The notes under the pieces are model-generated. The model was not told the origin of the DNA. It saw nothing but the letters and a program-made list of their open reading frames with translations, and made no database searches. From an uncultured Bacilli bacterium (lineage in GTDB: Bacteria; Bacillota_I; Bacilli_A; RF39; UBA660), in assembly GCA_947626595.1 (NCBI GenBank), contig CANQST010000005.1, positions 1-49,322 on the forward strand: DNA of 49,322 bases, written 5' to 3'. A program made the translations under genes and the position numbers. Each line of letters starts with the position of its first letter. Position 1 is the stretch's first letter. Positions 13,964 through 14,298 of the stretch are shown one piece after another.

Positions 13964-13992
13964 TTGTAATTTTAACTAATATATGGTACTAT
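13964..13992 (+). promoter_or_regulatory. Sigma-A promoter of antisense RNA copy 1
   Basis: TTGTAA-17 nt-TACTAT with TG extension; TATGGTACTAT conserved in all three copies. Confidence 0.7.
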
Positions 13993-13998
13993 GTATGT

Positions 13999-14199
13999 AG
14001 CAAGATTTTCTTGCATAAATTAAAAAGGGAACATTTAGTATGGGGCTGAATGTCCACCCTGTGTCGATATTTCACGACCTAAAGGGGTTCTATTCAACCT
14101 GGACCCCCTTTAGACCTTAATAGCTATTATTATAGCTAATAATAGTCCAAATAAGACACAAATGTATCTAAGAATTTTTATTATGAAAATTCTTTTTTT
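13999..14199 (+). ncRNA. Putative type I antitoxin antisense RNA, copy 1 (3' end uncertain)
   Basis: Own promoter; hairpins GCAAGA/TCTTGC, ACATTTAGT/GCTGAATGT, GTCG/CGAC, CTAAAGGGG/CCCCTTTAG; terminator-like AAGAATTTT/AAAATTCTT + T tract at 14170-14199; antisense to the 30-aa peptide gene. Confidence 0.6.
14021..14060 (-). terminator. Putative terminator of the peptide mRNA
   Basis: Minus strand AGGG(TG)GACATT...AATGTTCCCT followed by TTTT. Confidence 0.5.
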
Positions 14200-14202
14200 C
14201 AT
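14110..14202 (-). CDS. 30-aa hydrophobic peptide, putative type I toxin (MKKRIFIIKILRYICVLFGLLLAIIIAIKV)
   Basis: Hand-translated, below the ORF-track cutoff; strong SD AAAGGAGTGA; own promoter; basic N-terminus plus a single TM-length hydrophobic helix; covered by a convergent antisense transcription unit. Confidence 0.75.
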   Translation of the reverse strand: MKKRIFIIKILRYICVLFGLLLAIIIAIKV

Positions 14203-14269
14203 TTGCGCTTCACTCCTTTCTTACTTAAAAAGAGCAAACATCCATTAAACTAAATTATTCCCTAAAAAT

Positions 14270-14298
14270 AGTATACTATAAAGTTCCAATAAATGCAA
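14270..14298 (-). promoter_or_regulatory. Sigma-A promoter of the peptide gene
   Basis: Minus strand TTGCAT-17 nt-TATACT about 60 nt upstream of the SD. Confidence 0.7.

Follow-up and report, generated by a model that had tools for sequence, protein, structure and literature searches.

The stretch analysed here (hereafter the window) comprises 49,322 nt of contig CANQST010000005.1 from an uncultured Bacilli bacterium. Between positions 13,964 and 14,298 it carries a compact pair of convergent genes, which probably belongs to a new family of type I toxin-antitoxin (TA)-like modules with overlap at the 3' end of the toxin gene, and for which type I TA function is predicted. The minus strand encodes a peptide of 30 codons on an mRNA of ~250 nt that has its own promoter and intrinsic terminator, and the plus strand carries the promoter of a putative antitoxin RNA. 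A preliminary description of this DNA had recognised a type I architecture, in which the gene of a small hydrophobic peptide is overlapped at its 3' end by a convergent gene for an antisense RNA, and the elements listed below agree with it (ORF, open reading frame).

14270-14298, minus strand: toxin promoter, read directly, with -35 TTGCAT (14298-14293), a 17-nt spacer and -10 TATACT (14275-14270)
14203-14262, minus strand: 5' leader of the toxin mRNA, starting with GGG at 14262 and running for ~60 nt up to the ATG at 14202
14110-14202, minus strand: ORF of the putative membrane toxin, 30 codons, MKKRIFIIKILRYICVLFGLLLAIIIAIKV, with the stop codon TAA at 14112-14110
14079-14113, no strand assigned: hairpin across the stop codon, seen as inverted repeat I1 and in the folds, with the U-run absent in the window copy
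14014-14059, minus strand: terminator of the toxin mRNA, with a hairpin (14059-14027) and a U-rich tail (14026-14014, including TTTTT at 14026-14022)
13964-13992, plus strand: promoter of the antisense RNA, with -35 TTGTAA (13964-13969), a 17-nt spacer, TG at 13984-13985 and -10 TACTAT (13987-13992)
13999-14121, plus strand: putative antitoxin RNA, its start inferred from the -10 box and its 3' end uncertain

The peptide gene and its conservation

On the minus strand, the preliminary description had reported a promoter, a leader of ~60 nt, a Shine-Dalgarno (SD) sequence, the ORF at 14202-14110 and a structured 3' untranslated region (UTR) with a terminator, and all of them were read directly where it had placed them. 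Our consensus scan aligned the toxin promoter as TTTGCA-18-TATACT with 9/12 matches. The predicted fold of the mRNA (14010-14266, minus strand) reached -81.7 kcal/mol with a z value of -7.33, and 0 of 200 shuffled sequences were as good. The encoded peptide begins with basic residues (MKKR), continues with a hydrophobic core and is basic again at the C-terminus (I-K-K/V), and the structure predicted by AlphaFold is one helix over residues 2-29 (pLDDT 91.2). A 23-nt inverted repeat with 78% complementarity occupies 14159-14205. Because it is centred just past the start codon, the AUG lies within a long A/U-rich hairpin. In relatives the equivalent palindrome makes the opposite frame mimic the N-terminus of the peptide, giving artefact matches of the form IRRRTFIIKVL.

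A peptide profile (A1) was made from nine sequences, in all nine of which I28-K29 is invariant, and the window peptide matched it with an E-value of 8.1e-13. At E <=0.01, the profile matched 113 of the 301 genomes of the window's family and 92 of the 227 high-quality ones, a single genome yielding as many as 7; the matches listed contained no internal stops. The fetched loci held 42 profile matches with intact frames at 39 distinct places, 41 of them starting with ATG and one with GTG. These frames have 30 codons in 40 cases and 32 codons in two, and a GGAGG-type SD stands 6-9 nt upstream of the start in the fetched loci. Of the 34 distinct ORFs, 33 were 93 nt long, flanked by leaders of 52-62 nt and 3' UTRs of 53-138 nt. 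The ratio of nonsynonymous to synonymous polymorphism (pN/pS) in these ORFs was 0.46 in frame, compared with 0.84 and 1.27 in the shifted frames, and the entropy was highest at third codon positions. Conservation of the ORF in homologous loci had been named beforehand as a test of the module, and both the intact frames and the low ratio bear it out.

The surrounding elements are conserved as well. A genome of the same genus has MAKRIFIIKVFRYICIILLLIILLIIAIKK in an identical layout. The toxin promoter of relatives (-35 TTGnnn, 16-18 nt and the -10 hexamer, with at least 8/12 matches) is found in 33 of 34 loci, ~7 nt upstream of the leader, and the terminator GACATTCA...TGAATGTTCC with its T-run is kept in 30/30 aligned loci. 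Comparison of the loci thus establishes the peptide gene, its conservation and its own promoter and terminator.

The 34 distinct ORFs end in TGA (26), TAG (7) or TAA (1). Because the 30-codon length is conserved with TGA in 26 of the 34 copies, TGA is a stop codon in this lineage. Public gene calls P0001 and P0003 read the TGA of the peptide gene as W and give products of 99-139 aa, which suggests that the metagenome-assembled genomes (MAGs) with such calls were annotated under genetic code 4. Gene callers mostly overlook the ORF or read past its TGA stop.

The peptide had been described as belonging to no recognised family, and the databases agree. Pfam, NCBIfam and PADLOC contained no family for it, and nine family members gave 0 relevant Pfam matches at E up to 10. 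A profile search of the PDB returned a single chance match (E 1.1), the ESM Atlas returned one unnamed and uninformative cluster (score 0.76), and an exact look-up of four peptides in a collection of 15 billion proteins found none of them. At the RNA level, an Rfam search of 13000-15200 at E up to 10 gave chance-level matches only and no type I antitoxin. Phages and plasmids gave no match by blastn or tblastn, searches in which the low-complexity filter may hide a 30-aa hydrophobic query, and an exact-pattern scan of IMG/VR gave 0. In the literature on type I TA systems, including that on RF39 and Mollicutes, no paper describing the module family was found. The tiny size and fast evolution of their toxins make type I TA systems hard to find. 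Novelty is here measured against Pfam, NCBIfam, Rfam and the PDB, and the thousands of candidate ORFs in the tables of Fozo et al. 2010 and T1TAdb might include relatives.

The antisense RNA gene and the pairing of the mRNA ends

The TTGTAA-17-TACTAT promoter that had been proposed for the plus strand is present at 13964-13992 and is conserved in relatives. Across 33 homologous loci the antisense promoter scored at least 9/13 in 31, and TG was found at -15/-14 in 29. Its -35 is often TTGACA, followed by a spacer of mostly 17 nt and then by TGn and TATTAT; in 10 of the 33 loci it reads TTGACA-17-TGn with a -10 hexamer of 5/6 matches (TATTAT in nine, TATCAT in one). The promoter lies at a fixed distance of 32-37 nt past the toxin terminator in most of these loci and is nearer to consensus than the toxin promoter of homologous loci.

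The putative antitoxin RNA would begin with the 5' hairpin GCAAGAUUUUCUUGC (14000-14014), followed by an A-rich linker and a stretch complementary to the terminator and 3' UTR of the toxin gene. The antisense RNA predicted in relatives (alignment A4) has a GCAAG-N-CTTGC hairpin, an A-rich linker and then the antisense of the terminator and 3' UTR. The segment 13985-14125 on the plus strand folded with -44.1 kcal/mol (z -3.68 against shuffles), and an nhmmer profile of the antisense RNA matched the window's contig, C5, at 14000-14120 with an E-value of 4.8e-12.

In relatives a terminator hairpin is found on the antisense strand at the end of the toxin gene in 33 of 35 modules, with 28 distinct sequences and energies of -7.7 to -15 kcal/mol. 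Its cognate arms pair with -12.45 kcal/mol compared with -9.34 kcal/mol for non-cognate arms, the stem variants compensating each other. At least 5 consecutive T follow the hairpin on this strand in 28 of 34 loci, and the T-run is the reverse of the toxin gene end ATA-AAA-AAA-TGA (I-K-K-stop). Judged from sequence, the hairpin and U-run at the toxin gene's end are the terminator of the predicted antisense RNA in relatives, so that comparison establishes promoter and terminator for this strand too; together they delimit a putative gene of ~120 nt opposite the toxin. Because the predicted antisense RNA of most relatives ends in the last toxin codons, the overlap comprises the 3' UTR and only ~10 nt of coding sequence (CDS). 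The earlier proposal of an RNA running across the 3' UTR and CDS thus stood for the 3' UTR and had to be given up for the CDS before these last codons. In the window copy the ORF closes with IKV-TAA and the hairpin is a different one, so that the antisense U-run is missing.

The antisense RNA does not carry a conserved ORF, since the 26-aa plus-strand ORF of the window (14040-14120) is not matched by one in locus L005 of the same genus. In loci L031, L039, L041, L043, L045, L016 and L052, the antisense -35 sits in a hairpin loop and the T-run of that hairpin reaches the -10. This hairpin looks like a terminator of upstream, often tRNA, transcription that overlaps the promoter.

A pairing between the two ends of the toxin mRNA had been overlooked in the preliminary description. 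Over its first ~28 nt, the leader is complementary to both arms of the terminator region of the same mRNA, and it thereby repeats the core of the antisense RNA in the same sense. In the minimum free energy (MFE) fold of the window copy, leader positions 14262-14249 (the first ~14 nt) pair with the 3' end of the mRNA. The predicted 5'-3' duplex has -29.7 kcal/mol in the window and a mean of -35.9 kcal/mol over 31 loci, in which shuffled leaders gave -11.5 kcal/mol (standard deviation, sd, 3.2) and non-cognate pairs -29.8 kcal/mol. In alignment A2 the two 5'-3' helices are paired in 91.1% of cells, compared with 31-52% when the partners were slid. In four pairs both partners have changed, one example being U-A in 14 and G-C in 11 sequences. 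Cells changed on both sides numbered 41, against 17.3 in shuffles, and 0/500 shuffles reached 41. The window's genome has 8 modules of at least five sequence classes, whose cognate duplexes range from -28.5 to -39.7 kcal/mol compared with -11.7 kcal/mol (sd 3.0) for shuffled leaders. These 8 include modules with a second, 27-aa peptide type and a quite different terminator, and each of the 8 leaders has its best or near-best pairing with its own 3' end. The co-varying 5'-3' pairing is thereby established by comparison as well. RNAalifold on MAFFT alignments gave only part of the structure; because MAFFT misaligned the hairpin arms, per-locus folding and cognate/non-cognate duplex energies were used.

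The SD is predicted to be buried in the same fold. In the leader of the window copy, GCUCUUUUU (14235-14227) pairs with the SD region (GGAG, 14216-14213) in the MFE fold, and the predicted anti-SD of the family is mostly CCUCC just past the 5' pairing segment. The predicted probability that the SD is unpaired was 0.00 for the window copy and averaged 0.086 over 31 loci. The idea that blocking of the 3' UTR opens the SD was rejected, as the SD stays buried (0.086 when free vs 0.046 when blocked).

Spread, copies and genomic setting

The module belongs to a large multi-copy superfamily, another feature that had escaped the preliminary description. Class-wide profile scoring gave matches in 15 of 400 genomes, all in the window's family, with one further genome unscored, and the peptide profile had 0 matches in 350 genomes of 29 other families of the class. 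A library of 1.84 billion proteins contained 93 cluster representatives. An exact-pattern scan of 185,579 species genomes with the terminator/antisense-leader motif found at least 119 stretches. The carriers are nearly all MAGs titled uncultured Bacilli, Tenericutes, Erysipelotrichaceae, Candidatus Ventrenecus or Onthousia, and they come from human, rabbit, mouse, chicken and ruminant guts. A few differently labelled bins also carry the module; one match in Flavobacterium looks like chance. Among 84 motif sites in 80 analysed loci, 59 have an upstream peptide ORF, which is damaged in at least 7 of the 59. The remaining sites are cut by contig ends, have lost the toxin 5' half or carry the 27-residue second peptide type.

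In the window's genome (1.35 Mb, 28% G+C), the nhmmer profile detected 14 antisense-RNA-like elements. A 30-aa ORF accompanies five of them, on C5 (window), on C6, in a tandem pair on C9 and on C25, and an SD-preceded 27-aa ORF accompanies three (C29, C1 and C20). Two further 27-aa ORFs, on C12 and in a second copy on C1, have no clear SD or promoter. The orphan elements are the window's second copy, C6:18381 and those on C3 and C10. The 27-aa type shares with the 30-aa type the arrangement of promoter, leader, SD, 3' UTR and antisense gene, and the quite different terminator sequence of some of its copies still pairs with its own leader. With tandem modules, antisense orphans and damaged toxin ORFs, the population shows, as it appears from these genomes, TA-like behaviour. 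The second peptide type and the second copy in the window are located as follows.

C29:9132-9230, C1:54797-55257, C20:329-436 and C12:28744-28854, and loci L065, L089, L101, L102, L126, L132 and L141: 27-residue peptide type MSKKDFLI...LLL..I
14331-14542, plus strand: tandem second copy, 86-89% identical to 13963-14173, with an nhmmer match at C5:14368-14431

The tandem copy, likewise missed earlier, retains an intact antisense promoter (TTGCAA-17-TGG-TACTAT) and the 3' UTR, but of the ORF only the C-terminal half is left. In place of the toxin promoter, the leader, the SD and the N-terminal half stands the terminator hairpin (14562-14530) of an upstream 78-codon ORF. The segment 14331-14542 is, by its apparent make-up, an orphan antitoxin-like RNA gene beside a complete module. 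A third antisense promoter with its 5' hairpin lies at 16845-16925 on the plus strand; it is nearly identical to 14300-14370, is followed by a different hairpin and U-run, and stands just upstream of an O-antigen-ligase/glycosyltransferase operon (17081 onward).

The segment 14550-16879, with an AbiLi-like ATPase gene, the 78-codon ORF and an RNA-ligase gene, lies between two direct repeats of ~70 nt, as if it had been inserted into, or recombined between, a module array. The ATPase (14841-15977, minus strand) is of the AAA_21 type and matches PADLOC AbiLi (E 1.1e-35) and AriA. It forms a small defence-like islet with the 78-codon ORF (14550-14786, minus strand), which has no family and might be what is left of a partner gene. 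Near the islet, 16157-16879 on the minus strand encodes a protein of the RNA_ligase (PF09414) family. The neighbours of the module are a PASTA-repeat membrane protein, the AbiLi-like ATPase and the RNA-ligase-family protein. A few kb away, at 9420-10040 on the plus strand, lies the gene of a 206-aa RelA_SpoT-domain protein, apparently a small alarmone synthetase. Elsewhere the window has the content of an ordinary chromosome, with genes for DnaE, a histidine kinase and glycosyltransferases among others.

A tRNA gene oriented like the antisense RNA lies within ~350 nt past the toxin 3' end in 12 of 36 loci (L026, L028, L031, L036, L038, L041, L043, L045, L047, L048, L052 and L054). The isoacceptors vary (Ala, Leu, Arg, Gly, His and Thr), and the modules may be markers of variable regions linked to tRNA genes. 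A scan of 10 flanks revealed no integrase. The same ten flanks are heterogeneous (GNAT, ABC1 kinase, Abi_C, STAND/AAA and ABC ATPase), which speaks against a conserved neighbouring protein.

Comparison with known systems and alternative explanations

T1TAdb is described as holding 16 families, with SD/anti-SD pairs, 5'/3' stem-loops and 5'-3' long-distance interactions as determinants of the toxin mRNAs, and with the antisense RNA of its Gram-positive families at the 3' side in partial overlap (PMC8594479). By prediction, the window module has all of these features. Membrane type I toxins are described as shorter than 60 residues, hydrophobic, helical and cationic (PMC8309996), and the peptide shares these general traits with its 30 aa, predicted helix over residues 2-29, basic N-terminus and invariant K29.

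TxpA/RatA, BsrG/SR4, BsrE/SR5 and YonT/SR6 of Bacillus subtilis have in common with the module the Gram-positive lineage, the convergent genes, a small hydrophobic toxin and a buried SD. The antisense RNAs RatA, SR4 and SR5 promote decay that depends on RNase III, and SR4 acts at a distance to tighten SD sequestration as well. The TxpA/RatA and BsrG/SR4-type layout, with the antisense RNA on the 3' side (PMC8594479), is found in the window and in 33 loci. Searches of Rfam, Pfam and NCBIfam detected no peptide or RNA match to these systems. The window family differs from them in that its overlap is the 3' UTR plus ~10 nt of CDS, and it adds a 5'-3' closure of the mRNA of ~28 bp whose 3' partner is the predicted target of the antitoxin. 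In its relatives, moreover, the U-tract of the antitoxin terminator is encoded by the toxin I-K-K-stop codons.

Fst/RNAII (par of pAD1) and SprA1/SprA1as share with the module a Firmicute host, convergent transcription, terminators between the genes, peptides of ~30-33 residues and an SD sequestered by 5' structure. In Fst RNA I, an upstream helix hides and stabilises the 5' end. Peptides of the Fst/Ldr superfamily are described with a PXXXGC motif (PMC8309996), whereas alignment A1 has no conserved P or G and no Pfam or Rfam match was found, which argues against membership of Fst/Ldr. The interaction in Fst and SprA1 lies outside the overlap and uses 5' repeats (PMC8594479), but the leader of the window family cannot pair with the antisense RNA because both are of the same sense.

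Hok/Sok and AapA1/IsoA1 share the 5'-3' long-distance interaction that locks the full-length toxin mRNA (PMC8594479). AapA1, which the peptide resembles in layout, also has 30 residues, with a helix between basic ends, and requires K29/R30 for toxicity (PMC8309996); in the window family, I28-K29 is invariant in the nine sequences of the profile. In contrast, the antisense RNA of Hok/Sok and AapA/IsoA lies inside the mRNA and targets the 5' part or ORF, whereas that of the window family lies at the 3' end and would target the 3' UTR. The window family further differs in having no leader ORF, and the known systems come from a different phylum and show no detected sequence similarity. Type I toxins of Clostridioides difficile have ~50 residues. 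Its recently discovered modules, such as CD2517.1-RCd8 and prophage CD0977.1-RCd11, are likewise multi-copy, belong to a gut Firmicute and have links to defence or mobile regions (PMC5961336, PMC7699646). The window copy likewise adjoins an AbiLi-like defence gene, but the module had no match in the phage collection. The module would thus work like the Bacillus 3'-overlap systems combined with a hok/aapA1-like end-to-end lock, while being no detectable member of any of the families compared here.

We infer that the antisense strand is transcribed, that the peptide is toxic and that it is neutralised by pairing and cleavage. The convergent promoter, 32-37 nt past the terminator and stronger than that of the toxin, would produce an RNA of ~120 nt fully complementary to the toxin 3' UTR. 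Pairing with the 3' UTR would lead to duplex cleavage and decay, as in the 3'-overlapping systems of Bacillus, and would free the leader to keep the SD shut. Once the short-lived RNA is lost, the peptide would enter the membrane and harm the cell. The window copy would be a diverged member with an IKV end and no U-tract, and the adjacent orphan antisense copy may act in trans.

Several observations weigh against this interpretation. Promoter-like sites within 13600-14900 numbered 7 in the consensus scan compared with 8.4 (sd 2.5) in shuffles, so there is no excess, and the plus-strand promoter of the window (8/12) falls under the scan threshold. Because promoter motifs are no commoner than chance, the window alone proves nothing. 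The window copy also has a long SD-AUG spacing (10 nt), weaker promoter matches and no antisense U-tract. The ORFs behind the pN/pS ratio were gathered by profile, which is a bias toward intact frames. The compensatory 5'-3' changes are confined to few clades, and independent compensatory events are therefore few. Neither the anti-SD helix nor the terminator hairpin, both of them conserved, shows covariation; since both are invariant, covariation neither supports nor refutes them. A strand-asymmetry test (G-U vs C-A) on the hairpins gave 19 vs 15 loci and 22 vs 11. Finally, a role in stabilising mobile elements is not supported because phages, plasmids and IMG/VR gave no match. Unlike the promoter counts, the RNA folds of the window module do exceed shuffles, and we regard the conservation of the elements in homologous loci as the decisive support, at the level of sequence, for the module.

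It is unlikely, though worth weighing, that the peptide is a real small membrane protein under antisense control with a role other than toxin, such as a regulator, accessory subunit or stress peptide whose level is tuned by the RNA. The evidence for the ORF and the antisense gene would fit this equally well, and the peptide matches no toxin family; yet the peptide was not found in 188 of the 301 family genomes while reaching up to 7 matches in others, and no constant partner gene accompanies it in the 10 flanks. Tandem arrays, orphan antisense genes and decayed ORFs are unlike a housekeeping small protein. Further points against this reading are the extreme predicted translational lock (SD unpaired probability 0.086) and the use of the same RNA chassis by two unrelated-looking peptide types.

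We consider it very improbable that the conserved unit is mainly an RNA or DNA element, for instance a bidirectional terminator-promoter cassette or a tRNA-adjacent spreading repeat, in which the ORF is incidental. Such an element would account for the terminator and antisense-promoter part being the most widely matched in the DNA search and occurring also without the ORF, for the tRNA gene within ~350 nt in 12/36 loci and for the third promoter copy that heads an unrelated operon. However, purifying selection acts on the frame (pN/pS 0.46 vs 0.84 and 1.27), its fixed length of 30 codons is maintained between indel-rich flanks, and a strong SD and ATG are present in nearly all copies; terminal repeats of a mobile unit were not seen, though none were sought. 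A lysis/holin-like or leaderless bacteriocin-like peptide of an integrated element, timed by the antisense RNA, is hardly to be expected: the peptide is indeed small, cationic and predicted to be helical, defence-like neighbours are frequent (AbiLi-like ATPase in the window, Abi_C and STAND NTPase elsewhere) and positions are tRNA-proximal, but phage, plasmid and IMG/VR collections gave no match, neither the 10 flanks nor the window held an endolysin, immunity or export gene, and no integrase was seen in the 10 flanks.

Returning to the type I TA-like module, a broader reading can be offered tentatively. The copies may form an undescribed superfamily confined to one gut-Bacilli family, in which one RNA chassis carries at least two toxin peptides (30-aa MKKR...IKK and 27-aa MSKKDFLI...), with 14 antisense-RNA-like elements and ~10 toxin ORFs in 1.35 Mb and with a new logic of control. 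The antitoxin RNA would mimic the 5' end of the mRNA in the same sense and compete with it for the 3' terminator region, and its binding would both mark the mRNA for cleavage and reset the 5' leader. The Lys-Lys-stop codons of the toxin would double as the U-tract of the antitoxin, thereby coupling the essential basic tail of the peptide to antitoxin termination.

According to a published account, Proteobacteria, Firmicutes and Tenericutes are the only phyla from which type I TA systems have been reported to date (PMC12390103). The present results point to a whole module family hidden in uncultured, genome-reduced gut Bacilli, and to a DNA stretch put to two uses, as C-terminal codons of a toxin and as the terminator of its antitoxin. 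The co-varying 5'-3' mRNA locks with their antisense RNAs form a natural series that could serve as orthogonal RNA switches, and the module family may provide markers for the annotation of MAGs and for settling the genetic code (TGA as stop). A density of about one module per 100 kb, in a genome of 1.35 Mb, would be a heavy load for a streamlined organism, and it points to a role in defence islands or in genome stability.

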